A stretch of DNA of 32,000 bases from an uncultured Alphaproteobacteria bacterium (GTDB lineage: Bacteria; Pseudomonadota; Alphaproteobacteria; Rs-D84). The translations under genes and the position numbers were made by a program. The stretch spans positions 300,001 to 332,000 of the forward strand of contig OZ007020.1 of NCBI GenBank assembly GCA_963931495.1. Direction: 5' to 3'. Below are positions 3,474-30,026 of this stretch, in pieces. Positions within the stretch are counted from its first letter, which is position 1. Each line of letters begins with the position of its first letter. The notes under the pieces were generated by a model, which was not told the origin of the DNA, made no database searches, and was given only the letters and a program-made list of their open reading frames with translations.

Positions 3474-5492
3474 ATGAAAGTATATATAAATTATCAAGAT
3501 AAAAGATGGCGTAAATATAAAATTGATTTTATGCAAATTGCGAATATGGCGGCAATTGATGTATCCCCAGATGCAGAAGTGTCAATTACACTGACCAATG
3601 ACGCGGAAATTCAAAAAATTAATAAACAGTATCGTGGTAAAGATGCACCAACAAATGTTTTATCATTTGAATTGGGGGATGATATTTTATTGGGCGATAT
3701 TTTTATTTCTTTGGATACAGTTATGCGTGAAGCAAAAAATGAAAATATATCTGTGGCGGAACATACCGCCCACATGGTTGTTCATGGTATGTTGCATTTA
3801 CAGGGATATGATCATATAAAAAATTCAGATGCACGCAAAATGGAAAATCTGGAAATAAATATACTGAAAAAATTAAATATAAAAAATCCCTATGCGCCGG
3901 AATCGTGTATATGCAGCGATTTATCATGTTGTCCTGGGGGAAAGTTTTTTGCATTTTTGCATCGGTTAAAAATTCGTCCAGATGGATTCTGGCAATATAT
4001 ATTAATGGCGTTAATGGGGGCAATTTGCGCGTTGGGTTTTGCGCCGTTTAATTTATGGTGGGCGACACTGGGGGCAATATTTGTTGCATACAGATTAATG
4101 TTGCGTACACATTCGCGTGGAATATGGGGGGCGTTTGTGCGTGTCTTGCCGTTCAGTGCAATGTATGCAATTGCGATGTTTTGGTGGGTAACGAATTCAA
4201 TATATGTTGTGCCAGATTTGGCCGCGCAATTTGCAATATGGACGGTGCCGGCACTGGTTGGAATTGGTATTGTTGGTGGTTTTATATTTGCAATTCCATT
4301 TGTCGTAATCATGCGTATGCGTACAAATCCGGCATCCAGAGTCTTTGTTTTTGCAGCAATTTGGACATTGGTTTTATGGTTGCGTGAATGGGCGTTTACT
4401 GGATTTCCGTGGAATCCAATTGCGAATATTATGATGCCTTTTCCGATGATTGCGAATTCTATGTCGCTGTGGGGGGCACTGGGGTTGACGTTTGTGTGTG
4501 TTGGAATCATTGCCGCGTTGGCAGAATTATTTGGGCAATGGCGGAATTGGCGTGTCTGGGGTGTCTTTGCTGTTTTTATATTATTAGGTATCGGCGGTGC
4601 CATTTATGGTGCATATAATATGTCACGTTCAAATGTTTCGTGTGATGCGTCGCCGGTTATTCGGATTATTCAACCCGCACGCAGCGCGGTACAAAAGGCG
4701 TCGCATTCACGTGCAGATGCAATTCGCAATGCAGATACAAATATTGCGTATATGACGGGATTGGCGGTAATTAATAATAATGCGGACTTGGTTGTGTTCC
4801 CAGAAACAGCATATCCGTACGCGGTTTTGAATGGTGACGATATGCCAATGGCAACCCAGGTTGGTGCCAATATGATTATTGGCGCAACGCATGTTGATGA
4901 TGGTGGTGTCTATAATTCAATGATTGTTGCCAATCCAAATGGCATGATAAAAAAGATTTACAGTAAATCACACTTGGTGCCGTTTGGCGAATATCGCCCG
5001 TTTGGTGACATTATCCCAACACCAGGGCAATTATCACAGGGTGCCGGCCCAGAAATTATAAGTGTTGATTTAAGTGGCAAGACTTTTTCATTTGCGCCGG
5101 CAATATGTTATGAAATTATTTTTTCTGATTCATTGGTACCGGCGGGCGCCAATCCAGACGCAATTATAAATATTACAAATGATACTTGGTTTGGTGCAAC
5201 ACCGGGTACGTACCAGCACTTGGATATGGTGCGGCGTTATGCAATTGAATCAGGTTTGCCCATTGTGCGCGCAAACTATTCGGGAATCAGCGCATTTGTT
5301 AATCCAGATGGAACAATTTTGTCGTTAATTCCAATCGCGCAACCTGGATATGCTGATGGGGTCGTATGTGGTGCGCACAGTACACCATATCGCGCAATTG
5401 GGCGTGATGGATGGATGATAATTATACTGGCATTTTCATGTGTATGTGTGATGTTTTTGAACCGTCGTTGTGAAAAAAATAAACCAGTATAA
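3474..5492 (+). CDS. lnt: Single-ORF fusion of endoribonuclease YbeY (N-terminal ~140 aa) and apolipoprotein N-acyltransferase Lnt (C-terminal ~520 aa)
   Basis: The N-terminal part has PTNVLSFEL and the YbeY metal motif HGMLHLQGYDH. After the linker PESCICSDLSCCPGGKFF come multiple TM helices (ILMALMGAICALGFAPFNLWW...) and a CN-hydrolase domain with Lnt triad contexts VVFPETAYPY (E), KSHLVPFGEY (K) and APAICYEIIF (C). There is no in-frame stop between the two parts. Confidence 0.85.
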   Translation: MKVYINYQDKRWRKYKIDFMQIANMAAIDVSPDAEVSITLTNDAEIQKINKQYRGKDAPTNVLSFELGDDILLGDIFISLDTVMREAKNENISVAEHTAHMVVHGMLHLQGYDHIKNSDARKMENLEINILKKLNIKNPYAPESCICSDLSCCPGGKFFAFLHRLKIRPDGFWQYILMALMGAICALGFAPFNLWWATLGAIFVAYRLMLRTHSRGIWGAFVRVLPFSAMYAIAMFWWVTNSIYVVPDLAAQFAIWTVPALVGIGIVGGFIFAIPFVVIMRMRTNPASRVFVFAAIWTLVLWLREWAFTGFPWNPIANIMMPFPMIANSMSLWGALGLTFVCVGIIAALAELFGQWRNWRVWGVFAVFILLGIGGAIYGAYNMSRSNVSCDASPVIRIIQPARSAVQKASHSRADAIRNADTNIAYMTGLAVINNNADLVVFPETAYPYAVLNGDDMPMATQVGANMIIGATHVDDGGVYNSMIVANPNGMIKKIYSKSHLVPFGEYRPFGDIIPTPGQLSQGAGPEIISVDLSGKTFSFAPAICYEIIFSDSLVPAGANPDAIINITNDTWFGATPGTYQHLDMVRRYAIESGLPIVRANYSGISAFVNPDGTILSLIPIAQPGYADGVVCGAHSTPYRAIGRDGWMIIILAFSCVCVMFLNRRCEKNKPV

Positions 5493-5616
5493 TATTTTAT
5501 TTTCATTAATGTTATATGTTACGATATAATACCAATGACGCTGAGGGTTTCAGCGTTGGTGGCGCCGTCGGTAACATATTAATCAACGGCATTGGTGGCA
5601 ACCCAGGCGCCGATGA

Positions 5617-5820
5617 TTAATTTTTTAACTGGGCCAGAATCCATACGCGTATCGCAGATGACAGGTTCGTACCTGGTGCACGCGTGTCATCAATGTCGGT
5701 AATGATTGATGCAACAGATTGTTTCTTGTCTTGGGCGATGCGTTGCAGTTCGGCCACAAATTCTGGTTCCAGTGTAATACTGGTTTGGTGGCCTGATAAA
5801 GATACAGATATTTTTTTCAT
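5617..5820 (-). CDS. Ribbon-helix-helix (RHH_4-type) DNA-binding protein
   Basis: MKKISVSLSGHQTSITLEPEFVAELQRIAQDKKQSVASIITDIDDTRAPGTNLSSAIRVWILAQL fits the alphaproteobacterial RHH_4 pattern (S..L.GH.TS..LE..F...L..IA......S...l..ID..R...NLSSA.RVf.L). I chose the second Met (start 5820) because it lies 2 nt after the upstream stop. The track ORF extends to 5847. Confidence 0.7.
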   Translation of the reverse strand: MKKISVSLSGHQTSITLEPEFVAELQRIAQDKKQSVASIITDIDDTRAPGTNLSSAIRVWILAQLKN

Positions 5821-5822
5821 TG

Positions 5823-6260
5823 TTAAAATTTCCCAGCAACCAGGCAATCGGTCATCGCGCGATACGGATCATCATATTTACGCAGCATGTCCAAATTTGT
5901 ATTGCCCAGCATATAACATGTGCCAAAAGAATCAAATGCAAACCAAAACAGATCGTTGCGTCCAAACAATGTCTTGGCGTGCATTTGTGGAATACTGATT
6001 AGTTCGGAATTTATTGTTACTATATCCGGAATGGGATGTTTTATCCCGCGTGAAACATTCTGGGGGCCAAAGATATAACCACTGCCTAAATTAATGGCAC
6101 CACATTGTGTGTACAAATCAATCATAAATTGTGGCAGTATGGCGGCACGCATCTGTTGCAGTGATGTATTAACCAATGTTATTGCATTCGGCGCAACGCC
6201 CGGCGATACCAGCGCATTTTGTGATTTCAATAATGACAAAAATTCAGATAACTGTGTCAT
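5823..6260 (-). CDS. Hypothetical protein with SUKH/SMI1-KNR4-like (immunity-protein-like) features
   Basis: From the internal Met: MTQLSEFLSLLKSQ...LPQFMIDLYTQCGAINLGSGYIFGP...LFGRNDLFWFAFDSFGTCYML...YRAMTDCLV. This reads by eye like the SUKH pattern (LP..y..fl...nG...g..i.g ... fg..d.f.f.fd..G..y.l). The longer track ORF (to 6407) would overlap the upstream gene by 136 nt in a Trp/Arg-rich stretch that looks non-coding. Confidence 0.5.
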   Translation of the reverse strand: MTQLSEFLSLLKSQNALVSPGVAPNAITLVNTSLQQMRAAILPQFMIDLYTQCGAINLGSGYIFGPQNVSRGIKHPIPDIVTINSELISIPQMHAKTLFGRNDLFWFAFDSFGTCYMLGNTNLDMLRKYDDPYRAMTDCLVAGKF

Positions 6261-6271
6261 TGATGATAAAC

Positions 6272-6781
6272 TTAAACCTCCATCCCGCGTGATGCGGCAA
6301 TCTGGGCCGCCATTTGGCTTAATCTGTCTGCGGTTGCGTTGCCGCCATCGCCACCAGATACCATATGTGCTGGCACGTATACCTTTTTTGCCGGATTGGG
6401 CAGCCATATTGTTTTTGCCCCCGATTGGTCAATTATAAATTTATCCAGATTTTGTGAATATGGAAACGTCCAGCACATAAATAAATTATCTGTATCTAAT
6501 CTGCCGCCCCATGCCAATGGAACGCGAAAGCGTATAGATATGTTTTGTGGTATTTGGCGACCGGTCAGCAGATTTATAAATTCATCTTGGGTTAAATTCA
6601 TAAATGCCAATTCATCAACCGAATCGGACAATGAACGCGCAAATTCGCGACATAATTTTTTATATTGTGCAAACCAATCAGGGGCAACGGCAACGTGCGC
6701 GGGCTGGACTTCTATGACGGGCATGTCGTCCATATTCATGTCTTTTAATTTCTTTTCAGCCCCGCTGTGCGTCAGTTGCAT
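6272..6781 (-). CDS. Hypothetical protein with a degenerate HNH-like (beta-beta-alpha-Me) motif
   Basis: 169-aa ORF whose ATG shares one base with the upstream stop (TAATG at 6779-6783). The segment IRFRVPLAWGGRLDTDNLFMCWTF aligns by eye with the classical HNH core DH.iPl..GG.....NL..lC, but FR replaces the D-H pair. Confidence 0.55.
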   Translation of the reverse strand: MQLTHSGAEKKLKDMNMDDMPVIEVQPAHVAVAPDWFAQYKKLCREFARSLSDSVDELAFMNLTQDEFINLLTGRQIPQNISIRFRVPLAWGGRLDTDNLFMCWTFPYSQNLDKFIIDQSGAKTIWLPNPAKKVYVPAHMVSGGDGGNATADRLSQMAAQIAASRGMEV

Positions 6782-7710
6782 TACCCGATACCTATGTGAT
6801 TAATAACCGCGTCAATATATTGTGAATATGCATCAAACAGTCCGTTGTCGTCATTGGGTAATGGCGGATTCGGATGTTGTGACATATATTCCCGCAATTG
6901 TGCAATTGTATTAAACATCAATATATCTTGGAATTCAGATGTCGCCGCGTCAGGGGCCGAAATAACAAATCCATTTATTATTATATCGTTGTTATCAAGT
7001 GTGTCGGAAAATATACCGTCCAGTTTATCAATGACGGTGCGCATTTCTGTGGTCTTGATTCCGATACCGCCAATCCACAATGTTTCATTCGTTCCGATGG
7101 CCAGTAATGCGATATTTATTCCGTTAATTTTTGGCGACGTTTTTACAGTATAACCCAATGATGTAAATATTTCGCGGATTTCGGGCCAATCTTGTTGTGC
7201 CGGTGGCGTTGGCGACGGGGTGGAATGCGTGTTTTCGGGTACATACCTTTGTCCTGATTGCATAATTCCAGATGGAATGTTCAGACGTGGTGGACGCATG
7301 CTGGGCGATGGCGATGTCGTATTTTGTGTCGTGGATGATTCCTGGGGTTGGGCAGGCATTATATCCAATGTTGATGCATCAGTATTTTGTATGTCGTTTG
7401 TTGTTGTTTTGGTTGCTTTTGCTTTTTTGTTTTTATCGGATACGTGCATGATTGGCATACGTATTTTGCGGATGCGGGGGCGGACAATTGCGTACAGCCC
7501 CAGTATTGTTACAAACACAATCACCACAATAGATATATAAAATCCAATTTTAATTGGGCTTTGTCCGGCCTGTAAATATGCCAGGTATTCCCAATGCGCA
7601 GCAGAAAATATATTAAATCCAAATGATATATTAAACCAAAAGCATGTTACCAGTGTAATCGCCAGTAACCATAAAATGCACAGCAATATATAATCAGGTC
7701 TGAATTTCAT
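6781..7710 (-). CDS. Hypothetical membrane protein: 2 TM helices, a low-complexity Thr/Ser/Pro/Gln linker and a ~130-aa C-terminal globular domain
   Basis: 309-aa ORF. TM candidates are YILLCILWLLAITLVTCFWFNI and IKIGFYISIVVIVFVTILGLYAIV. These are followed by a basic stretch (RPRIRKIRMP...KNKKAKATK), a linker (TTTNDIQNTDAS...QPQESSTTQNTTSPSPSMRPP...STPSPTPPAQQ) and a C-terminal domain I could not assign (DWPEIREIFTSLGYTVKTSPKINGINIALLAIGTNETLWIGGIGIKT...). Confidence 0.7.
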   Translation of the reverse strand: MKFRPDYILLCILWLLAITLVTCFWFNISFGFNIFSAAHWEYLAYLQAGQSPIKIGFYISIVVIVFVTILGLYAIVRPRIRKIRMPIMHVSDKNKKAKATKTTTNDIQNTDASTLDIMPAQPQESSTTQNTTSPSPSMRPPRLNIPSGIMQSGQRYVPENTHSTPSPTPPAQQDWPEIREIFTSLGYTVKTSPKINGINIALLAIGTNETLWIGGIGIKTTEMRTVIDKLDGIFSDTLDNNDIIINGFVISAPDAATSEFQDILMFNTIAQLREYMSQHPNPPLPNDDNGLFDAYSQYIDAVINHIGIG

Positions 7711-7753
7711 TTGTCTTTAATTATATCATATTTGTGATAAAGTAGAAAGGGTA

Positions 7754-8434
7754 ATGATTGATACAGATTTTATTCTTGAAAATTCAAATGTGTGCGCAAT
7801 GTGGTGCGCGGCGGGTTGCGAACCCACAGATTTGGCGCATGCGGCAAATACCGCCATAGAGCAGGGGGTGAATACAATATCTGTTGCACCATCGGCGGTC
7901 GCGGTTATATGGCCATGGTTGGAAAACAAGAATATTAAAATTTTGGCGCGATTTTATTTGAAATCTGTGAATTCAGAAACAATGTCTGGCATTACGGCCA
8001 ATATAAATTCTGTGTTCAAACAGGGGGCCGATGGCGCCCAGATTTTCTTGAATTATAACGATATGGACGCGTTCGTATCACAAATTTATGCGATTCGTGA
8101 CGATTTATTTTTTAACAAGCGTTTGTTTATCGGGTTTGATATTACATCTGTGCCGCCATGTGATTGGAATCATGTATGGGACAGTATGCGCCGAATACGC
8201 GCAGATGGAATAATATTCGCGTTCACAAATGATACAGGTGATAATTCAAATTTCGTGGGCCAGGTTTATGGTGCAATGAAGTGCACAGGGAATGAAAATA
8301 AAATGTCTGTGCATTTTGCGCCAATGCAAATGCCGGGCCGATTAGAACAGGCGGCGCGTTTGATTACGGAACTGTGTCCAGAAATGGTTGATAAAATGAA
8401 ATTTTTTATCAAAGACAATCCCCGTGCACAATGA
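7754..8434 (+). CDS. Hypothetical protein; weak resemblance to a DeoC-type class I aldolase TIM barrel without recognisable catalytic lysines
   Basis: 226-aa ORF with AAAGGG upstream of the ATG. TDLAHAANTAIEQGVNTISVAPSAVAVIWPWLENKNIKILA and FKQGADGAQIFLNY resemble the DeoC patterns (A.e.g...vcV.P..v......L......i ; GAdEiD.V). The positions where I would expect the Schiff-base and helper Lys read LFIGFDI and IIFAFTND. Confidence 0.55.
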   Translation: MIDTDFILENSNVCAMWCAAGCEPTDLAHAANTAIEQGVNTISVAPSAVAVIWPWLENKNIKILARFYLKSVNSETMSGITANINSVFKQGADGAQIFLNYNDMDAFVSQIYAIRDDLFFNKRLFIGFDITSVPPCDWNHVWDSMRRIRADGIIFAFTNDTGDNSNFVGQVYGAMKCTGNENKMSVHFAPMQMPGRLEQAARLITELCPEMVDKMKFFIKDNPRAQ

Positions 8435-9657: not shown

Positions 9658-11227
9658 AGGTTTATCGCCGGAATTAATCGCACGTGTGTTGGGCGGCGCG
9701 CCAAAATATACTTTGGCAGAACTGGAAGAAAAATTCCCGCCGCGTAATTTGCCGGATGGTGCGTTTGTAACGCGCTTTGCACCAAGTCCCACGGGATATA
9801 TGCATATTGGTGGCCTGTACCAGGCATTGGTTGATTGTAAATTGGCATACGATACGGGCGGGATTTTTATGCTGCGCATTGAAGATACAGATACCAAGCG
9901 TGAAGTGGCAGATGCCGTGAATGTCATTTGTGATTCAATGCGGCAATTTGGTTTGCAATATAATAATATGCCGGAATATGGTCCGTATTACCAATCCCGG
10001 CGGCGCGATATTTATCACAGTGTGGCGGCCGATTTATTGGCGCGTGGTTTGGCGTATCCGTGCTTTTTAACCGCGGACGAGATGGCGCGCATTCGCGAAA
10101 ATCAAAAGGCTGCGGGATTTGCAACCGGCATTTACGGTGAATTTGCGCGCGACCGCGATATTACTGATGATGAAATAATTCGTCGTTTGGACGCCGGCGA
10201 AGTGCCATCTGTTCGTTTGTATTCAACTGGTAACCCCGAACAACGTATTTTCTGTAAAGATGCAGTTCGTGGTTCAATTGGTTTTCCGGAAAATAACGAA
10301 GATATTGTTTTAATTAAATCAAATGACGGTTTGCCGACATATCATTTTGCGCATCTGTGTGATGATCATTTTATGCGCACAACGCATGTTGTGCGTGGCG
10401 AAGAATGGTTGCCGTCATTTCCGCTGCATATTCAATTGTTTCGTATGATGGGATGGATGCCACCGTTATATATTCATACATCCACAATTGATAAAATTGA
10501 TGCGGATACTGGAAAACAGCGAAAATTATCCAAGCGACACGACCCAGAAGCGAATGTTGCGTTCTTTCTGGCCGATGGTTGGCCGACCGAGGCTGTGTTG
10601 GAATATCTGTTTAATATTGCCGCATCTGGGTATGAAGAGGCAAAGAATAAAGGCCAGGTTAAAAATATTTGGGAATACCAATTGCGGCCAAAGAAAATTC
10701 CTATGTCGGGCGCGTTGTTTGATATGAAAAAACTGGAATGGTGGGCGCGTGAATTTATCGGGACGTTGCCGGTTGATGAATTGGCGCGCCGCGTTCGTGA
10801 TTGGGCAAATGAATATGACCCAGTGTGGGCGGCGCGAATCGGTGGTAACCCCGAATATCTGAAAAACATTTTGGCAATTGAACGCGATAATCCAAAGCGT
10901 ATTCGCAAAGATTTTATTACATGGAAACAGACTTTGGACGAAGTGTCTTATTTTTGGGACGATTTGTTTGCGCCGAATACCGAATATGCGTTTAATCACG
11001 ATTTACTGCGCGCGTTTTTGAAAACATTTGATATTTGCGATGATAAAGACGCGTGGTGGAATAAAATTGTTGCGATTGCGGCGGCCACGGGCGTGAAAAA
11101 TGGTGATGTTGCCATGAATCTGCGTGTGGCGGTAACGGGGCGCACAAATACCCCGGATCTGTATTCAATTATGCAGGTTATGGGCGCAGATCGGGTTGTG
11201 TCACGAATTCAGGGGATGTTAAAATGA
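9650..11227 (+). CDS. gltX: Glutamate--tRNA ligase (class I)
   Basis: RFAPSPTGYMHIGG (HIGH motif), LRIEDTD and KLSKRH (KMSKS motif). 8-nt overlap with the upstream GNAT gene. Confidence 0.92.
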   Translation: MRKGLSPELIARVLGGAPKYTLAELEEKFPPRNLPDGAFVTRFAPSPTGYMHIGGLYQALVDCKLAYDTGGIFMLRIEDTDTKREVADAVNVICDSMRQFGLQYNNMPEYGPYYQSRRRDIYHSVAADLLARGLAYPCFLTADEMARIRENQKAAGFATGIYGEFARDRDITDDEIIRRLDAGEVPSVRLYSTGNPEQRIFCKDAVRGSIGFPENNEDIVLIKSNDGLPTYHFAHLCDDHFMRTTHVVRGEEWLPSFPLHIQLFRMMGWMPPLYIHTSTIDKIDADTGKQRKLSKRHDPEANVAFFLADGWPTEAVLEYLFNIAASGYEEAKNKGQVKNIWEYQLRPKKIPMSGALFDMKKLEWWAREFIGTLPVDELARRVRDWANEYDPVWAARIGGNPEYLKNILAIERDNPKRIRKDFITWKQTLDEVSYFWDDLFAPNTEYAFNHDLLRAFLKTFDICDDKDAWWNKIVAIAAATGVKNGDVAMNLRVAVTGRTNTPDLYSIMQVMGADRVVSRIQGMLK

Positions 11228-11970
11228 CAAAATCAAGACAGGTTACGCGTAAGCAGTTAAAAGAAGTTAAATCCGATTCGCGTGCGAATCGTTTGTTGCG
11301 TATTTTGCGTGCAACGGGGCTGTTTCGCTGGGAACGCCCCAGCACCCATGCCGAAGAAGTGTTAAATATATTAACACATGGTATTGGGGTTGGGTTGGCA
11401 ATTGCGGGATTGACGTTGTTGGTTGTGTTTGCGGCGTTGGCGCATAATCCGTGGGCGGTTGTATCCTGCGCGATTTTTGGCGCGACGATGATAACGCTGT
11501 ATTTCGGTTCCACAATGTGCCATGCGACAATCGGACGACGTGGCGAAAGTTTTTTTGAAGTATGGGACAGTGTTGCCATTTATGCATTGATTGCCGGTAC
11601 ATATACGCCGTTTTTGTTGGTAAATTTGCGTGGCGGATTGGGATGGACTGTGTTCGGTATTTTGTGGGCCATTGTGATTTTTGGCGCAATTATGAAAATT
11701 CGCAGTCCAAAGCAGCAACCAAAATGGATGGTGGCGCTGTATCTGGTTATGGGGTGGACGTTGCTGTTCATATTGCCGGCAATGTTGCATAATATCCCGC
11801 CGCGCGGGTTGTGGTTTATTCTGGCGGGTGGACTGTCTTATTCGCTGGGGGTCATATTTTACCTGTGGCGAAAAATGAAGTTTTCGCATGCGGTGTGGCA
11901 TTTGTTTGTAATCGGGGGCAGTGTGTGTTTCTTTTTCGCCGTGTTGTTTGGATGTATAATTGACTTTTAA
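11224..11970 (+). CDS. Hemolysin III / PAQR-family membrane protein
   Basis: Seven hydrophobic segments. It has the N-terminal EEVLNILTHGIGVGLAIAG and a C-terminal HAVWHLFVIGGSVCFF typical of Hly-III/YqfA. ATGA overlap with gltX. The true start could be further downstream. Confidence 0.85.
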   Translation: MTKSRQVTRKQLKEVKSDSRANRLLRILRATGLFRWERPSTHAEEVLNILTHGIGVGLAIAGLTLLVVFAALAHNPWAVVSCAIFGATMITLYFGSTMCHATIGRRGESFFEVWDSVAIYALIAGTYTPFLLVNLRGGLGWTVFGILWAIVIFGAIMKIRSPKQQPKWMVALYLVMGWTLLFILPAMLHNIPPRGLWFILAGGLSYSLGVIFYLWRKMKFSHAVWHLFVIGGSVCFFFAVLFGCIIDF

Positions 11971-12129
11971 CGGGACAGTATCCAGATTTTATGTTGAATA
12001 AATTATGTGATTTTGTATAAAATACATGGGAATTTTATCCTGATAAGGAAACAAGTATGAAATTACAAAAGTTTTTTGTAAATCTGTTATGTGCATTTGT
12101 TCCGGTAAAAAAATCGTGGATTAAGTTTG

Positions 12130-12158
12130 TTGACATTTTGTGGTATTAGTATTATTAT
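12130..12158 (+). promoter_or_regulatory. Candidate sigma70-type promoter in the thrS upstream region
   Basis: -35 TTGACA (12130-12135), a 17-nt spacer, then -10 TATTAT (12153-12158). The predicted start near 12165 is only about 4 nt before the ATG of the Thr-rich mini-ORF. Confidence 0.45.
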
Positions 12159-12168
12159 TCAATCTGTT

Positions 12169-12228
12169 ATGAAAAAAATTGGTTTCTTGTTCGTTACAAT
12201 AACAACCACAACCCCCACGGGGGTATAA
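12169..12228 (+). CDS. Candidate Thr-rich leader peptide (19 aa) upstream of thrS
   Basis: ATG AAA AAA ATT GGT TTC TTG TTC GTT ACA ATA ACA ACC ACA ACC CCC ACG GGG GTA TAA = MKKIGFLFVTITTTTPTGV*. Six of the 19 codons are Thr. No SD, consistent with a near-leaderless transcript from the promoter above. A GC hairpin (ACCCC-CACG-GGGGT, 12211-12224) covers the last Thr codons. Confidence 0.4.
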   Translation: MKKIGFLFVTITTTTPTGV

Positions 12229-12310
12229 GATTTCTATTTGCGCATTGGCGCGTTCAGTGTAATAATCAATAACAATTCGTTTAATTTTTTTATAACAAGG
12301 GGATTTTATT

Positions 12311-14044
12311 ATGTCTTATCCGATTGAAACGATTCGTCATTCGTTGGCACACGTTATGGCGGCGGCGGTACAAAAGTTGTACCCAGATGTTAAATTTGCC
12401 GGGGGGCCGGCGATTGAAAACGGCTTTTATTATGATTTTGATACAGAACATCGTTTTTCCGAAGAAGACTTTGAAAAGATAGAACGCGAAATGCGTGAAC
12501 TGATTAAATCAAATGGCCGATTTGAACAACGTAATGTCAGTCTGGATGAAGCCAAGCAGATTTTTGCCGCACAACCGTACAAGATGGAATGGTTGAATGA
12601 ATACGATGCCGCTGGCGAAGCGTTGTCTGTGTATACTTTCCGCGATTTTGTGGATTTATGTCGTGGGCCACACGTTGAAAGTTCCAAGGATTTACCACGC
12701 GATTCGTTCAAAATTCGTACTGTTGCGGGTGCATACTGGAAAGGTGACGCAAAAAATAAAATGTTGCAACGTATATATGTTGATGCGTTCGCAACCAAAG
12801 AAGAATTAGATGAATTCTTGAAAATGCAAGAAGAAGCCGCCGCGCGCGATAACCGTAAACTGGGCAAGGATATGGATTTATTCCATTTTGAACCAGATTA
12901 TGCCCCGGGTGCGGTATTCTGGCACGACAAAGGGTACAAAATTTATCGCCGTCTGATTGATTATATCCGTCATCGCCAAGAAATGGCCGGTTATCAAGAA
13001 ATTTCAACCCCGTCTGTTATGGACAGATCACTGTGGGAACGCAGTGGACATTGGGCAAAATATGGTGAACATAATTATTCCGGAAAAACCCAGGATGGAA
13101 AAACTTTTTGTGTAAAGCCGATGTCTTGTCCGGGCGGAATGCTGGTCTTTGGCCAGGGTATCAAATCGTACAAAGATTTGCCGTTGTATTTGGCGGAATT
13201 CGGTAAAGTTTGCCGGTACGAGGCCGCTGGTGGGCTGTCGGGATTAATGCGTGTGCGCGAATTTACCCAAGACGATGCGCATATTTTCTGTACCGAAGAA
13301 CAATTGGAAGAAGAAGTTGTAAAAATATTACGCTTTATCAAAGATATTTATGGCAAGTTTGGTTTTACAAATATTTCCATGAAATTGGCAACGCGCAAGG
13401 AATCAGAGTTCCGTATCGGGTCTGATGAAATTTGGGACAAGGCCGAAGGCGCGTTAAAGCATGCGTTGGATGCAAATGGTATTGAATATGAAATTGCGCC
13501 AGGGGATGCTGCGTTTTATGGACCAAAAATTGATAATTATTTGAAAGATGCGCTGGGGCGCACGTGGCAGTGTGGTACCGTGCAATTGGATATGAATTTG
13601 CCAGAACGATTTGATTTATCATATATTGGTGAAGATGGTGAAAAACATCGTCCGATTATGTTGCACCGCGCAATGTTGGGTTCAATTGAACGTTTTATGG
13701 GAATATTACTGGAATCTACGGGTGGTAATTTGCCACTGTGGTTATCCCCAGAACCAGTTGTGGTAACACCAATTTCAGAAAAGTATCGTGACTATGCAAC
13801 GGATGTTGTGAACCGTTTGCGGAATGCCGGTGTGTATGCGCGTGCAGATTTACGTGATGAAAAAGTAAACTATAAAATCCGTGAACTGTCACTGGCCAAG
13901 ACGCCGATTATCGCAATCGTTGGCGAAAAAGAAATGGAAAATAATACCGTGACTTTGCGTCATCTGGGTGTGGAAAAACAAGAAACGATGCCTGTGGACG
14001 AATTTGTCGCCAGTATGGCCGATGCCGTGAAATTGCCGGCGTAA
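12311..14044 (+). CDS. thrS: Threonine--tRNA ligase, lacking the N-terminal TGS domain
   Basis: It starts at MSYPIETIRHSLAHVMAAAV (the HxxxH editing motif). It also has CRGPHV, MSCPGG, FTQDDAHIF, GTVQLD and MLHRA (class II and zinc-site contexts) plus a C-terminal anticodon-binding domain. SD AAGGGGA upstream. 577 aa. Confidence 0.93.
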   Translation: MSYPIETIRHSLAHVMAAAVQKLYPDVKFAGGPAIENGFYYDFDTEHRFSEEDFEKIEREMRELIKSNGRFEQRNVSLDEAKQIFAAQPYKMEWLNEYDAAGEALSVYTFRDFVDLCRGPHVESSKDLPRDSFKIRTVAGAYWKGDAKNKMLQRIYVDAFATKEELDEFLKMQEEAAARDNRKLGKDMDLFHFEPDYAPGAVFWHDKGYKIYRRLIDYIRHRQEMAGYQEISTPSVMDRSLWERSGHWAKYGEHNYSGKTQDGKTFCVKPMSCPGGMLVFGQGIKSYKDLPLYLAEFGKVCRYEAAGGLSGLMRVREFTQDDAHIFCTEEQLEEEVVKILRFIKDIYGKFGFTNISMKLATRKESEFRIGSDEIWDKAEGALKHALDANGIEYEIAPGDAAFYGPKIDNYLKDALGRTWQCGTVQLDMNLPERFDLSYIGEDGEKHRPIMLHRAMLGSIERFMGILLESTGGNLPLWLSPEPVVVTPISEKYRDYATDVVNRLRNAGVYARADLRDEKVNYKIRELSLAKTPIIAIVGEKEMENNTVTLRHLGVEKQETMPVDEFVASMADAVKLPA

Positions 14045-14051
14045 TAAATAT

Positions 14052-14075
14052 ATGGCGCGCTTGTAAACGCGCCAT
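14052..14075 (+). terminator. Hairpin downstream of thrS (possible terminator)
   Basis: ATGGCGCG (14052-14059) / loop CTTGTAAA / CGCGCCAT (14068-14075) forms a perfect 8-bp stem. The tail TATAATTGTAT is only moderately T-rich. Confidence 0.45.
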
Positions 14076-14100
14076 TATAATTGTATGCAAAGGGGGTCAT

Positions 14101-14244
14101 ATGAAAAAAGCAATATTATTGTTGGTGTTGTTTGTTGTGCCAATGGCATTGTCGGCGTGCGCAACAAGTTGTGAAACAGAACCAATTGTTGAAGAAAATC
14201 ATAAACTGATTGTGCCGCCGAATTTTGGACAAATGCCAAAATAA
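14101..14244 (+). CDS. Small lipoprotein (47 aa), possibly DUF3035/BamF-like
   Basis: My own ORF call; it is below the track's size cutoff. AGGGGG is followed by the ATG at 14101. MKKAILLLVLFVVPMALSAC has a lipobox (LSAC). The mature part ends HKLIVPPNFGQMPK, reminiscent of the PL.vPP.f.LP tail of DUF3035 lipoproteins. Confidence 0.5.
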   Translation: MKKAILLLVLFVVPMALSACATSCETEPIVEENHKLIVPPNFGQMPK

Positions 14245-14259
14245 CGTGCGAGATATTCT

Positions 14260-14287
14260 TTGTTATTTGCGCTTTTTGTGGTATAAT
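14260..14287 (+). promoter_or_regulatory. Candidate promoter with extended -10 for the SPOR gene
   Basis: -35 TTGTTA (14260-14265), a 16-nt spacer, then TGgTATAAT (14279-14287). AAGGGGA SD and the ATG at 14316 lie downstream. Confidence 0.5.
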
Positions 14288-14315
14288 GTACCGTAAAGCA
14301 TAAGGGGAATCCGCC

Positions 14316-15146
14316 ATGAATAATGATGATAACAATCTGGACCTGTTGGATTTGAATGATGATGCAGATACGTTGGATGACAATCTGCCGGATGCGGCGC
14401 CGTTTACCAATCCGCGCCCGAAAAAGCCGTGGCTGTTGTTAGCGGTTGGGGTGTTGGTAATTATTTTGGCGACGTATATTATTATTCGCACAATTGGTGG
14501 CGATTCTTCATCTTCTATGGAGGTGGATTTAGACGCACCCGCAATCGTCGTAGAAGGACAAGATGGTCCAATCGCGGATGCGGCGCTTGATGTGCCAAGC
14601 GTTCCGGCGGCTGTTGCGCCGGCGCCACAACCCGCGCCGGCACCAAAAAATGATGCACGTGTGCAACCGGCGCCTGTACCAGTACCAGCACCGCAACCCG
14701 CGGTAAAGCCGGTACCACAGCCTGCGCCACAACCGGTGGCCCAAAATGCAACCCCGGGTGTGCCAGTGCGTGTCATAGAAGACAGAAAAGATGTTACATT
14801 TAATCCGGAACGCGTTCAATCGGCGCCGGCACCGGCACCAAAACCGGCCGCCACACAACCGGCACGTCGTGCAGCGCAACCCGCCGCAACGGCGCCGCGT
14901 AATGGTGGTTGGTATGTTCAGTTTGGATCGTACAGCACGCGCGCATCGGCCGAAGCCGGCCAGCGTCAATTACAAAATGGACATCGCAGTTTGTTTGCAG
15001 GACGCCAGTTTGTAATCTTGGCCGCTGTTTTGCCAAATGGATCAACAACGTATCGTTTGCGGGTGGCGTTTGATACATCGGCAAATGCAAATGCGTTTTG
15101 TCGCAATGCCAAGTCGGATGGTGTTGATTGTTATGTAACAAAGTAA
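14316..15146 (+). CDS. SPOR domain-containing protein (septal peptidoglycan binding) with a TM anchor and Pro/Ala-rich linker
   Basis: TM segment WLLLAVGVLVIILATYIIIRTI. Linker PAPQPAPAPK...PAPVPVPAPQPAVKPVPQPAPQP. C-terminal GGWYVQFGSYSTRASAEAGQRQL...YRLRVAFDTSANANAFCRNAKSDGVDCYVT is a typical SPOR domain. Confidence 0.85.
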   Translation: MNNDDNNLDLLDLNDDADTLDDNLPDAAPFTNPRPKKPWLLLAVGVLVIILATYIIIRTIGGDSSSSMEVDLDAPAIVVEGQDGPIADAALDVPSVPAAVAPAPQPAPAPKNDARVQPAPVPVPAPQPAVKPVPQPAPQPVAQNATPGVPVRVIEDRKDVTFNPERVQSAPAPAPKPAATQPARRAAQPAATAPRNGGWYVQFGSYSTRASAEAGQRQLQNGHRSLFAGRQFVILAAVLPNGSTTYRLRVAFDTSANANAFCRNAKSDGVDCYVTK

Positions 15147-15161
15147 TTTTGGGGGATAAAA

Positions 15162-15386
15162 ATGTTTGGACGATTTGGTTGGGCCGAAATACTGGTCATT
15201 GTTGTGTTGGTGCTGATTCTGTTTGGGCATAACAAGATTCCCGGCATGATGAAGAATTTGGCCGATGGTATTAATACATTTAAAAAAGAGATAAAAAATC
15301 GGTCGCAAAAAGATGCGAAAAAGCCGGTAAAGGCCGGGGACGGGGCCAAGAAAAAATCTGTGAAAAAAGCCCCAGCAAAAAAGTAA
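15162..15386 (+). CDS. tatA: Twin-arginine translocase subunit TatA/E
   Basis: MFGRFGWAEILVIVVLVLILFGHNKIPGMMKNLADGINTFKKEI shows the TatA N-terminal TM, hinge FG and amphipathic helix, followed by a Lys-rich tail. Confidence 0.85.
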   Translation: MFGRFGWAEILVIVVLVLILFGHNKIPGMMKNLADGINTFKKEIKNRSQKDAKKPVKAGDGAKKKSVKKAPAKK

Positions 15387-15406
15387 ATTCCGATTCGTTT
15401 TTGTTT

Positions 15407-15436
15407 ATGCGTGGTTGTGTGCCACGCATTTTTTTG
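15407..15436 (+). terminator. Rho-independent terminator after tatA
   Basis: ATGCGTGG (15407-15414) / loop TTGTGTG / CCACGCAT (15422-15429), followed by TTTTTTG. Confidence 0.7.
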
Positions 15437-15544
15437 TATGCTTGCGTATAGTAAAATCACAAGTGATATGGTGTGTTGCCGTATTTGGGTGTCAAAACCC
15501 GTAACATAGCGTCGCGAATGCGATGAAAAGTGTCTCTAACCACA

Positions 15545-15553: not shown

Positions 15554-15622
15554 ATGGTTCGTGAATAATGCGTTTTTGCAAAATAAGCACACTGATACTA
15601 TGTTTTAGTCTTGAACCGCCAG

Positions 15623-15649
15623 CCACCTGAATGTTTCCGGTGGTTTTTT
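15623..15649 (+). terminator. Terminator-like hairpin plus T6 immediately upstream of the cysteine-rich protein gene (attenuator or 3' end of an sRNA?)
   Basis: CCACC (15623-15627) / 11-nt loop / GGTGG (15639-15643), followed by TTTTTT (15644-15649). The stem is only 5 bp, so this is a weak call. The SD GGGGG and the ATG follow within 25 nt. Confidence 0.35.
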
Positions 15650-15670
15650 GTTGCAAAATGGGGGTTAAAG

Positions 15671-16234
15671 ATGAAAAAGATATTTTTAGCCATTGTCGCG
15701 TGCATGATCTGCAACGTTGGTTGGGGTGTACCAACTTGTGAACCCGGACAGTGTGGTAAAGGAACTTGGGTGCTAGATGATGATAATCCTTATAACCCAT
15801 ACTGTCAGGTTTGCCCAGCCAACACATATCAAGATGGCTGTATTAATCCTGGTGAAGAGTGTACCCCATGTCCCGCGGGGACCGTCACGATTGGCGATAC
15901 GGCGGCCGATCACGACAGTATTGATGACTGTATTCCGATTGTATCTTGTTCACCGGGATATTACTTACCGGCAGATAGCACTTCTTGCACACAATGTCCG
16001 AAAAATTCATATTGTCCCGGTGGGACGTTTACAGAAACGACATCTGATTCTGGGATAACACAATGTCCCGATAATATGTATTCACCACTGGGGTCAGATA
16101 GTGCGGATGATTGTGGGCGCGTGTTACATATTGGCGAATATATTTTATATCTGCGCACGGCAAAACTGACCGTGCCATCACTGAATGTCCAGATTGGCAA
16201 CACGATATATTACGGTGATATGTTCCCCGCGTAA
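15671..16234 (+). CDS. Secreted cysteine-rich protein with eukaryote-type GCC2/GCC3 (ephrin-receptor-like) repeats
   Basis: Start taken at the ATG at 15671 (SD GGGGG). Signal peptide MKKIFLAIVACMICNVGWG. Repeats: CQVCPANTYQDG...CTPCPAGTVTIGDTAADHDSIDDC, CSPGYYLPADSTSCTQCPKNSYCPGG and TQCPDNMYSPLGSDSADDCG, matching C..CP.gtY......C..CP.G......G......dC. The track's 15611 start adds 20 unlikely residues. Confidence 0.75.
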   Translation: MKKIFLAIVACMICNVGWGVPTCEPGQCGKGTWVLDDDNPYNPYCQVCPANTYQDGCINPGEECTPCPAGTVTIGDTAADHDSIDDCIPIVSCSPGYYLPADSTSCTQCPKNSYCPGGTFTETTSDSGITQCPDNMYSPLGSDSADDCGRVLHIGEYILYLRTAKLTVPSLNVQIGNTIYYGDMFPA

Positions 16235-26778: not shown

Positions 26779-26854
26779 TGGTGGGCGCGCAGGGACTCGA
26801 ACCCTGGACCCACTGATTAAGAGTCAGTTGCTCTACCAACTGAGCTACGCACCC
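26779..26854 (-). tRNA. tRNA-Lys (anticodon CUU), CCA encoded
   Basis: The reverse complement reads GGGTGCGTAGCTCAGTTGGTAGAGCAACTGACTCTTAATCAGTGGGTCCAGGGTTCGAGTCCCTGCGCGCCCACCA. It has a 7-bp acceptor stem (one G-U), a D arm GCTC/GAGC, an anticodon stem ACTGA/TCAGT with loop CT-CTT-AA, and a T arm CAGGG-TTCGAGT-CCCTG. 76 nt. Confidence 0.92.
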
Positions 26855-28460: not shown

Positions 28461-30026
28461 GTGTGGGCGAGAAGATTTTGCTTTTTACTGATTTGTCTGC
28501 TTGCGGGACGCGCATATGGCGCGATGGTGATAGATAGTGTCGTTAATGATGCGTCGTTGAATTTAACAGAAAATACATTGGTTACAGGTTCTGGTATTGT
28601 GTTTGCGGATGTTATTAATGTGTATAATGGTGTGGTTATTCAAAATGATGGATTGATTGCAACTGATAAGATTAATATACCAGAAAATTCTGTCGTTTAT
28701 ATTGAAAACAGTGGTCAAATAAATGCCGAATTTTCGTTTGGTAACAATTCACATGTGGTTCAGTTGGTCAAATCTGGGGATGATTTGACACGGCTGGGGG
28801 TGACGGGTAATTTTGATGTGCAGATTGATAGTGCCACAGGCATTCAAATCGGACGGTTGGCCAGTGTCGCTGATGGGGCCGGTAATTTAATAATCAAAGA
28901 TTCAGAATTATTAATTGGCGGGGTAAATGGATATATGTTACCAGATCTGTCTGGTACATCAGTGTATGTTATTGGTGATGTGATTGTTCGCGCAGAATCA
29001 GTGTCTGATTTGATTAATGGTCCGATATTTAGTGGTATTAATGGTGATGGCGATGTATATGTATACGCGAATGACATCAGTTCGTTATATGCGATACAGT
29101 CGTTTGTTGAAAATAATAAACTGTATGCAAAATTGGTGCGCGAAACGGATTATGTAAAAGTTTTGGGTCATAATCGTACGGGTGCGTTTTTGAATTCTTT
29201 GCGTGAACGGGGTAATGATAAAAAGTTGTTTGATATGTTGGATGCCGCAACAACGATGAACGAATTGCAATCTGTGATGTCGCGTTCTGTACGTTTGAAT
29301 CCAGCCAGAATGATGCGTCCGGTTCGTGTATTGAATGATTTTGAATTGATTAATTACAGTATGGATATAAACAATGTTGTTTTTCGTCCATCCGTCATAT
29401 TCATGGATGATTTTCTATCTTATGGTATTAATATTAATACGAATGTCCGTATTGGTAAAAACAGTTTGATTGGTTTGTCTTTCAGTGGTTCAGAAATAAA
29501 ATACAGCGATGATATAAATGATTTTAAGTCTTATGTATATGGCGGAAATGTGCACATGCATCATTTTCATGACAGTTTATTCTTTCGTGTATTGGGTGGT
29601 GTTAAAATCGCGATGTTTGATTCTGGGCCGGTATTGCATGATGACGAGATTACAGAAAATCCACGCGGATTTTTGGGATATGGTATTACAGATATTGGTA
29701 TAAAATTTCTGTTGTCTGATTCTGTTGGGATATCGCCATTTGTTCGGGCTGGGGCCGAATATACAACGATGCTAGATACATATGACATTGAACCAATTGC
29801 CAGTGTTGGCGCCGATGTTGCGTTCATCGTATCGGGCGCAACCATAGATTATAATTATGCAGTGCGTTTTATATCAGAATTTAATGGGGCGTTTGGTATG
29901 ACGTTACGTATGAATGCCCAATCAGTTGCAGATAATGCAGGTATAACCGTAGATACGGGTCTGGTTTACAGTCCAGATTTTGGTTATGGGTTAAGTGTTC
30001 GGTTGGGCGGTGGATTCAGTTTCTAA
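28461..30026 (+). CDS. Autotransporter-like outer-membrane protein (type Va: short passenger plus C-terminal beta-barrel)
   Basis: GTG start. Signal peptide MWARRFCFLLICLLAGRAYG/A. The passenger has a repetitive hydrophobic-polar pattern rich in Gly/Asn/Val/Ile. A helical linker (FLNSLRERGNDKKLFDMLDAATTMNELQSVMSRSVRLNP) is followed by alternating beta-strands ending GYGLSVRLGGGFSF. Confidence 0.68.
   Translation: MWARRFCFLLICLLAGRAYGAMVIDSVVNDASLNLTENTLVTGSGIVFADVINVYNGVVIQNDGLIATDKINIPENSVVYIENSGQINAEFSFGNNSHVVQLVKSGDDLTRLGVTGNFDVQIDSATGIQIGRLASVADGAGNLIIKDSELLIGGVNGYMLPDLSGTSVYVIGDVIVRAESVSDLINGPIFSGINGDGDVYVYANDISSLYAIQSFVENNKLYAKLVRETDYVKVLGHNRTGAFLNSLRERGNDKKLFDMLDAATTMNELQSVMSRSVRLNPARMMRPVRVLNDFELINYSMDINNVVFRPSVIFMDDFLSYGININTNVRIGKNSLIGLSFSGSEIKYSDDINDFKSYVYGGNVHMHHFHDSLFFRVLGGVKIAMFDSGPVLHDDEITENPRGFLGYGITDIGIKFLLSDSVGISPFVRAGAEYTTMLDTYDIEPIASVGADVAFIVSGATIDYNYAVRFISEFNGAFGMTLRMNAQSVADNAGITVDTGLVYSPDFGYGLSVRLGGGFSF

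Follow-up and report, generated by a model that had tools for sequence, protein, structure and literature searches.

A core operon of the alphaproteobacterial order Rs-D84 that appears to retain an inactivated HNH/YrhA pair related to VirD4-linked gene sets

HNH nuclease toxins paired with SUKH immunity proteins are already known, as is the RHH_4 family of DNA-binding proteins. Type IV coupling proteins (T4CPs) are likewise known to work with accessory or adaptor proteins, and toxin/antitoxin pairs linked to type IV secretion have been described; examples are DotL with IcmS/IcmW, VbhT/VbhA of Bartonella, and the RHH relaxosome proteins TrwA and TraY. RHH proteins commonly accompany coupling proteins, as do small cytoplasmic partner proteins encoded beside the VirD4/TraG-type ATPase. 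Toxin-antitoxin and polymorphic-toxin loci are typically patchy in their distribution and fast evolving (PMC3113570), and one SUKH protein, Syd of Escherichia coli (SUKH-2), docks on a membrane translocase, the SecY translocon (PMC3113570). Here, we analyze four minus-strand genes (A to D) and a divergent neighbor (E) in a stretch of 32,000 nucleotides, referred to throughout as the window, from an uncultured bacterium of the alphaproteobacterial order Rs-D84 (contig OZ007020.1, positions 300,001 to 332,000; Table 1). An initial annotation, prepared before any database was searched, had likened A to D to a toxin/immunity module and suggested an accessory insertion. The reading that we favor, with moderate confidence, is that a dead toxin-immunity pair from a type IV secretion operon has been retained as a core operon of Rs-D84, where it would function through a tethered complex.

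The origin of gene B emerges from its relatives. Single-sequence scans of Pfam, NCBIfam, PADLOC, and PHROGs returned nothing for A, B, or E; the Pfam and NCBIfam scans were equally empty for P0284, a VirD4-linked relative of B, and for P0276, and phmmer and profile searches of PDB sequences with B gave nothing significant. A tblastn search of plasmids with P0284 recovered genes annotated as “HNH endonuclease” in 458 records (E values of 7e-11 to 5e-10), and hhalign comparison of the B-family alignment (A3) with this protein of IncHI2 plasmids gave a probability of 98.2% (E value of 2.7e-14 over 126 columns). The plasmid protein passes the Pfam HNH model (26.9 bits, with a PF01844 cutoff of 21.4), and residues 16 to 136 of B align with its toxin module, residues 224 to 350. 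The AlphaFold2 (AF2) model of B (predicted local distance difference test [pLDDT] score of 88.4) contains a beta-beta-alpha core at about residues 81 to 117, formed by strands 81 to 85 and 100 to 104 and a helix at 105 to 117. Foldseek found no individually significant match for this model (best E values of 0.6 in the PDB and 0.47 in BFVD), and its lists are enriched for HNH proteins, which account for about 18 of the 50 best matches in the PDB and no fewer than 22 of the 50 best in BFVD. The hhalign alignment and the modeled core bear out the proposal of the initial annotation that B lines up with an HNH core, and these comparisons identify the toxin module at the C terminus of an HNH nuclease as the ancestor of B. 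No trafficking or delivery domain accompanies it, as had also been noted: the alignment of B (169 residues) with the plasmid protein falls on the toxin module of the latter.

In other HNH enzymes, the general-base histidine lies three residues before a proline, as in Cas9 (H840) and colicin E9 (H103). The corresponding plasmid motif, VHHKIP, aligns with I83-R84-F85-R86-V87-P88 of B, such that the His-His pair is matched by Arg84-Phe85; the initial annotation had rightly seen that the expected Asp-His pair is replaced, although the substituting residues are not the Phe-Arg that it named. The catalytic position, three residues before the conserved Pro, is Phe85 in the window, carries His in 0 of 234 family members, and is hydrophobic in every B-family member examined. 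The position of the metal-ligand His (SPYH in the plasmid protein) is Ser109 in the window and S or A throughout Rs-D84. The neighboring His and the metal-ligand His are retained in the VirD4-linked subfamily of B (76 of 77 members), whereas the Rs-D84 subfamily has lost all three His positions and has R, F/L, and S/A instead. Because the general-base, neighboring, and metal-ligand His residues are all gone in Rs-D84, B cannot act as a His-Me nuclease, and we classify it on these residues as a catalytically dead HNH (His-Me finger) homolog, in line with the suspicion that the nuclease was inactivated. Other parts of the protein are held constant: the structural Asn99 and the Gly92-Gly93 turn are invariant, distant relatives included, and the core is followed by a GGDGGNAT loop (residues 143 to 150) that is invariant in B.

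Gene C, which the initial annotation had called SUKH-like, carries that assignment well. Its AlphaFold model, built from 35 homologs, has a pLDDT of 92.9, and the best three Foldseek matches in the PDB are 2ICG, 3D5P, and 2PAG (probability of 0.98 to 1.0, TM score of 0.58 to 0.71), which are three of the five reference SUKH structures given by Zhang, Iyer, and Aravind (2011; PMC3113570). The predicted order of secondary-structure elements (four helices, a beta-hairpin, and a four-stranded meander) agrees with that of SUKH proteins, and phmmer and profile searches of PDB sequences with C gave nothing significant. Against the NCBIfam YrhA model (NF038335), C scores 20.4 bits (E value of 3.7e-4), below the 55-bit cutoff. 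The C-like proteins of the VirD4-linked and deep relatives match the same model with E values of 1e-9 to 1e-17, and two of them pass the cutoff, with 64 bits for contig L095 and 57.3 bits for contig L090. The C family aligns with the L095 protein in hhalign (93%, E value of 3e-7), and the direct hhalign comparison of the C family with the plasmid YrhA protein was not significant; the link between C and plasmid YrhA therefore runs through the NCBIfam model and the intermediate C-like proteins. By model and profile, C adopts the SUKH fold and belongs, as a divergent member, to the YrhA family, and these comparisons trace it to the YrhA/SUKH-type immunity protein of an HNH toxin. The pairing of B with C is strictly conserved. 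Thus, the HNH/SUKH pairing first proposed for B and C holds as an ancestry, but not as a live toxin module, given the loss of the catalytic residues and the core status of the locus.

Genes A to D form one co-directional, translationally coupled operon. The stop codon of A and the start codon of B have one base in common (TAATG at 6779-6783), the B stop (TAA, 6272-6274) is followed by an 11-nucleotide (nt) gap to the C ATG at 6260, and the C stop (5823-5825) by a 2-nt gap to the D ATG at 5820, such that the open reading frame (ORF) calls and the sequence reproduce the four chained minus-strand ORFs with junctions of -1, 11, and 2 nt reported at the outset. The internal Met proposed as the start of C is backed by the lengths of its homologs (144 to 150 amino acids [aa] in 118 of 120 listed), and the count from that Met is 145 aa rather than the 146 aa claimed. 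The block is flanked in the window by a ybeY::lnt fusion gene and trmB, with E between A and trmB; the neighbors lnt and trmB and the divergent gene at 7754-8434 across a 43-bp spacer had all been identified correctly.

The distribution of the operon indicates that it is not an insertion. We recovered 309 homologs of B and 715 of C, with 55 to 73% identity and near-constant length, all encoded in gut-metagenome assemblies of uncultured “Alphaproteobacteria” or “Rickettsiales”; the named genomes that encode B are those of Candidatus Enterousia (GTDB order Rs-D84). A scan of one genome per species, with the B-family alignment A1 as the query, detected 192 B-encoding genomes, and the synteny and identity figures given below come from the 80 of these species-level genomes that were retrieved, whose contigs vary in reach. 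In all contigs that reach far enough, the order is gltX, (GNAT), trmB, E (opposite strand), A-B-C-D, and ybeY::lnt (opposite strand). The operon is single copy, with no paralog arrays, cassette arrays, or diversification, and E stands alongside it across 83 loci and is its constant companion in the sister lineage L006 as well as in Rs-D84. Median identities to the window proteins are 65.5% for B, 65.7% for D, 57% for C, 46% for A, and 43% for E, next to 68% for TrmB, 59% for YbeY-Lnt, and 77% for GltX. Third codon positions are near saturation (identity of 0.38 to 0.46) while the proteins remain conserved, from which it follows that A to D are under purifying selection; together with the many homologs of constant length, this marks them as real genes rather than chance ORFs. 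Within the order Rs-D84 (Ca. Enterousia and relatives), the operon is inherited vertically as part of the core genome. Members of this order have genomes of about 0.67 to 1.6 Mb, lack the tricarboxylic acid cycle and respiration, and are believed to depend obligately on other cells, as symbionts or parasites (PMC12306168).

These results bear on the proposal, made in the initial annotation, that the block is an accessory insertion. A recent accessory island or anti-phage defense insertion between lnt and trmB would be in keeping with the nuclease-related domains that the genes encode and with the small HTH gene and metK that, according to the initial annotation, many alphaproteobacteria carry at this site, yet gene order does not vary within an order-level clade or in its sister lineage, the GC content of the block genes (0.42 to 0.44) does not deviate from that of the whole window (0.43), neither PADLOC nor PHROGs gives a match, and there is no integrase, tRNA gene, or repeat at the block borders (the sole tRNA gene of the window is at 26782-26854). 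Because synteny is invariant, GC content undeviating, and conservation housekeeping-like, we regard the block as core and an island as highly improbable; wherever an Rs-D84 contig extends across the site, the operon is present there, and the conservation of B and D equals or exceeds that of housekeeping neighbors such as YbeY-Lnt.

Variation does occur beside the operon. Downstream of D and before ybeY-lnt, inserts of 2 to 3.7 kb are present in seven loci (L026, L038, L042, L044, L047, L050, and L061, at about 11150-14700), encoding secreted, Cys-rich, coiled-coil, or acidic-repeat proteins that differ by lineage, and the gap between D and ybeY-lnt looks like a variable hot spot next to a conserved operon. 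In one locus (L079, 8357-9055, minus strand), the ortholog of E has an in-frame stop codon, possibly marking a pseudogene or an assembly error.

A second explanation keeps the toxin alive. B might be toxic by a non-nuclease route, such as tight DNA binding, with C neutralizing it and D autoregulating the operon, and the module would then persist, as addiction modules do, because its loss is lethal. Such an active toxin-immunity module would account for descent from an HNH toxin and a YrhA immunity protein, for the toxin-then-immunity gene order with translational coupling, and for an RHH regulator accompanied by a palindromic candidate operator. However, the catalytic His is absent from all 234 family members and all three His positions are gone in Rs-D84, the operon occupies one fixed locus with housekeeping-like conservation and shows neither paralog arrays nor diversification, D is the last gene and consists of a bare RHH domain with no toxin-binding tail, and there is no PADLOC match. 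We consider this explanation quite improbable, and the live toxin module implied at the outset is not upheld.

The favored reading, in which the dead pair stems from a type IV secretion operon, draws on more distant relatives. A profile search of 1.84 billion representative proteins yielded just 71 matches at E values of ≤0.001, which marks the family as narrow. In the sister lineage L006, whose B is 36% identical, the arrangement E / A-B-C-D / ybeY::lnt is retained, and L090 (B 26% identical) has an A-like gene, B, a C-like gene, and an RHH_4 gene in that order. On five contigs (L095, L096, L099, L007, and L089), a B-like gene stands between the gene for a VirD4/TraG coupling protein, directly upstream, and a C-like gene downstream. 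L095 has two A-like genes ahead of virD4 and a TrbL/VirB6 gene alongside, and the A-like gene directly upstream of virD4 is matched by window A in BLASTP (E value of 8e-5); the second L095 paralog was not confirmed as an A homolog by hhalign. L099 has the order RHH_4, A-like, VirD4, B-like, C-like, with overlapping stop and start codons at the A-like/VirD4, VirD4/B-like, and B-like/C-like junctions. In L006, L090, and L099, an RHH_4 gene adjoins the homologs of A, B, and C. On the strength of these gene orders and homologies, the Rs-D84 operon comprises the accessory genes of a VirD4 operon but not virD4 itself, and these relatives provide the connection to delivery that the window does not show. 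The 20-kb flanks of 80 Rs-D84 loci contain neither virD4 nor virB genes, and the window has none either. The nearest cultured coupling proteins are 32 to 35% identical and lie in virB8-11/virD4 clusters of Sphingomonadales megaplasmids, and the module is absent from these cultured Sphingomonadales clusters. Two candidates for further members were set aside: the gene after virD4 on an Erythrobacter megaplasmid is not B-like, and a 547-aa membrane protein of L090 has no similarity to VirB6/TrbL.

Several features of the VirD4-linked loci differ from those of Rs-D84 or vary among contigs. The VirD4-linked B-like proteins (P0284, P0287, and relatives) start with MWDWSGSK and have N-terminal regions of about 200 aa with long, low-complexity Pro/Gln/Tyr-rich extensions and PQPYAPQ repeats, which Rs-D84 B does not have. 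Ahead of virD4 in L095 (2969-5193) and L096 (5149-7453) are paralogous genes of about 350 to 370 aa without a Pfam family; of the L095 paralogs, one is Pro/Ala rich at its N terminus and the other highly charged and Lys rich. In L095 and L007, unlike in L096, the C-like gene is followed by a gene for a DUF1189 membrane protein. In L099 (8685-15461), ComEC (Competence), an Endonuclease_1 gene, UDG, and RecA are encoded within 10 kb downstream of the operon, which may represent a DNA-uptake context or coincidence.

The plasmid relatives point to the same kind of linkage. The IncHI2 pair (e.g., WP_045340370.1/WP_045340367.1 on pMY490-mcr-9) consists of an HNH gene followed by a YrhA family gene and lies inside the transfer region, adjoining TraG-N and TrhH. 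Its HNH protein, 353 aa long, carries about 220 additional residues at its N terminus and keeps the HH pair and the metal-ligand His. The pair is located at 6359-7936 of L101 (Enterobacter cloacae pMY490-mcr-9) within the Tra2 transfer region and recurs in 458 plasmid records; it may be a conjugation-linked toxin-immunity pair, and we found no description of it in the literature.

This linkage also invites a third explanation, in which B is an effector exported to partner cells by a type IV secretion system (T4SS) with VirD4 encoded elsewhere in the genome, C is its chaperone or provides self-protection, and A is a receptor associated with the coupling protein. It would fit this explanation that several lineages conserve both the VirD4-B-C triad and the adjacency of A to VirD4, with TrbL/VirB6 encoded alongside, as would the intact HNH/YrhA pair next to TraG-N and TrhH in the IncHI2 transfer region, the Gly-rich and basic C-terminal tails of many B-family members, and the presumed dependence of Rs-D84 on other cells (PMC12306168). 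We nevertheless find an exported effector rather unlikely: virD4 and virB are missing from the window and from the 20-kb flanks of the 80 loci, B and D are the best conserved of the five proteins encoded by the block, although effectors usually evolve fast, B has no catalytic residues, and its tail in Rs-D84, which ends in ...RGME, has little net positive charge.

The favored reading assigns A the role of a tether. Hydrophobic segments span residues 3-32 and 49-80 of A, a basic patch follows at residues 77-100 (9 K+R, 1 D+E), and a linker of about 75 aa (residues 100-173) is 65% S/T/P/Q/N and includes a conserved RPPRLNIP motif, such that hydropathy and charge confirm the two transmembrane helices, basic patch, and low-complexity S/T/P/Q linker originally assigned to this protein. 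The same scan finds no hydrophobic segment in B, C, D, or E. An N-terminal membrane motif (FGFNIFSxxHWxYL) and the linker motif RPPRLN are conserved in the A-family alignment (A4). The positive-inside rule relates the charge flanking a membrane segment to its orientation; read by this rule, the two transmembrane segments and the basic patch would place the C-terminal side of A, that is, the linker and the C-terminal domain (about residues 174-309), in the cytoplasm. For that domain, PDB sequence searches gave nothing significant, as was the case for E, and NERD (PF08378) is matched below threshold by long-form relatives of A only (E values of 0.016, 0.0068, and 0.0026), with no match from window A. 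By these features, A is an inner-membrane protein with two transmembrane segments and a putatively cytoplasmic domain that is weakly NERD-like. Gene E encodes a cytoplasmic orphan protein with no match in Pfam, NCBIfam, PADLOC, PHROGs, or PDB-sequence profiles.

Gene D is the presumed repressor of the operon, to judge from its domain and from the spacer beside A. Its assignment as an RHH_4-type DNA-binding protein is confirmed by Pfam PF13467 (E value of 1.6e-20, 73.4 bits with a cutoff of 25, residues 2-64 of 67), a family on which we found no literature; the gene is the last of the operon and encodes a bare RHH domain without a toxin-binding tail. The 43-bp spacer between A and E has a mean pairwise nucleotide identity of 0.83 across 74 species, compared with 0.55 to 0.66 in the flanking coding DNA, and its consensus is CTTTTTACTTTATCAYAAATATGATAYAAT. 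An extended -10 element, TGATATAAT, lies on the minus strand at 7720-7728, only 9 nt upstream of the A ATG, and the A mRNA should therefore be nearly leaderless. A palindrome overlapping this element reads TATCAC-AAAT-ATGATA in the window (consensus, TATCAT AAAT ATGATA), occurs there once, and has positions that are ≥90% conserved across species. Conservation of the spacer runs through the stretch from -35 to -10, beyond what a promoter needs; this fits an operator, most simply one for D, and we take the palindrome as a candidate operator for that protein. A metagenome scan for the 20-mer containing the palindrome and -10 element placed 42 of 120 matches in E/A spacers, and use of the 20-mer as a guide to a D regulon was dropped, as the motif is not specific enough.

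From these elements, the favored reading can be set out as a mechanism. B and C would keep the tight binding typical of toxin and immunity protein and form a nontoxic cytoplasmic heterodimer. A, with a VirD4-like topology (N terminus inside, two transmembrane segments, cytoplasmic domain), would use its long flexible linker and NERD-like domain to anchor the B-C dimer at the inner membrane. The A/B/C complex may originally have been an accessory platform that recruits substrate or DNA for a coupling protein, and in Rs-D84 it would either act in trans with a putative T4SS encoded elsewhere or have been repurposed. D would bind the palindrome over the -10 element in the 43-bp spacer, autoregulating the operon and probably the divergent gene E as well.

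Several observations weigh against this reading. The NERD label for the C-terminal domain of A rests on sub-threshold matches, and that domain is short of an internal segment of about 30 aa in Rs-D84. We infer that virD4 was lost from the Rs-D84 operon, rather than inserted elsewhere, from its distribution and not from a rooted phylogeny. The published description of Rs-D84 makes no mention of a secretion system (PMC12306168), and we found no literature on a T4SS in the order. The invariant GGDGGNAT loop and the conserved Arg84 and Arg86 could mark an unrecognized activity of B. The palindrome with its -10 element, finally, is also present in unrelated AT-rich promoters, which account for 78 of the 120 metagenome matches, so that its sequence by itself is no proof of a specific operator. 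In a related version of the reading, the dead toxin-immunity pair, the tether, and the RHH protein would have been domesticated into an indispensable membrane complex that serves, for example, DNA or nucleoprotein handling or exchange with partner cells, without VirD4; we rate the probability of this version as fairly low.

The coordinates of the locus are collected in Table 1.

Table 1. Features of the A-to-E locus and its neighborhood in the window
Feature	Position	Strand	Length	Remark
Gene A	6781-7710	minus	309 aa	ORF call
Gene B	6272-6781	minus	169 aa	ORF call
Gene C	5823-6260	minus	145 aa	Counted from internal Met
Gene D	5617-5820	minus	67 aa	
Gene E	7754-8434	plus	226 aa	Divergent from A
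Control region A/E	7711-7753		43 bp	Divergent
Palindrome	7724-7739			Candidate operator; overlaps -10 element
ybeY::lnt	3474-5492	plus	672 aa	Single ORF

The remaining observations concern the surroundings of the operon. ybeY (rRNA-maturation RNase) and lnt (apolipoprotein N-acyltransferase), which are separate genes in most bacteria, are fused into one gene of about 596 to 670 aa in Rs-D84 loci and the sister lineage L006. GC skew on the plus strand is strongly positive (about +0.15 to +0.3) almost window-wide and near zero over 5500-7000, where the minus-strand operon lies, and GC content rises to as much as 0.51 at 14000-15500, around a gene for a SPOR-domain protein. Two plus-strand ORFs stand out: one of 521 aa (28461-30026) has no Pfam family at E values of ≤0.001, and the only match of the other, of 207 aa (15611-16234), is a marginal one to a Cys-rich Ephrin_rec_like repeat (23.4 bits, with a cutoff of 23.1).

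We found no description in the literature of a dead HNH/YrhA core operon, of the combination of A with RHH_4, of the VirD4 five-gene set, or of the ultra-conserved spacer. Four features appear new: that an order of gut bacteria with reduced genomes carries a dead HNH/YrhA pair as a fixed core operon, that such a pair is combined with a two-transmembrane NERD-like tether and an RHH_4 protein, the homologous five-gene set (RHH_4, A, VirD4, B, and C), and the ultra-conserved spacer. The locus offers a concrete, testable case of a toxin-immunity pair kept under strong purifying selection without enzymatic activity in genomes of about 800 to 900 genes, in which little nonessential DNA survives. It also brings to light a five-gene VirD4 set in uncultured gut Alphaproteobacteria that is linked to the HNH/YrhA pair of IncHI2 plasmids. 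The Rs-D84 operon and its control region are good candidates for genes of a metabolite-acquisition or partner-dependent lifestyle, and, if the less probable version with domestication into an indispensable complex is true, such a complex in partner-dependent gut bacteria with genomes of about 0.8 Mb would be a clear case of the passage from conflict system to core machinery.

Compared with the described systems, the Rs-D84 operon combines familiar parts in an unfamiliar setting. With polymorphic HNH/SUKH toxin systems, it shares the SUKH fold of C and the position of C immediately downstream of an HNH-derived gene, but B has no trafficking domain, there are no diversification or cassette arrays, the toxin is dead, and the locus is core. 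As in RHH-regulated type II toxin-antitoxin systems, a small RHH protein is encoded in the same operon and a palindrome lies over the promoter; unlike in those systems, D comes last and is a bare RHH_4 domain, the toxin is inactivated, and the operon includes a membrane protein. The accessory systems of T4CPs differ in another respect, as the window operon is without any coupling protein; no sequence relationship to them emerged, although no search was aimed at one. Syd illustrates that a SUKH protein can be a docking or quality-control partner of a translocase, which fits the occurrence of C-like genes in virD4 operons, although Syd belongs to another SUKH group and has no HNH partner, and any link between C and a translocase is hypothetical. 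The IncHI2 HNH/YrhA pair, for its part, is plasmid borne, catalytically intact, and without an A-like or RHH_4 partner. It nonetheless has in common with the Rs-D84 operon a toxin module homologous to B, a YrhA family gene downstream in the same order and separated by a short gap, and, by way of the VirD4 genes of the B and C relatives, a linkage to type IV (conjugative) transfer.

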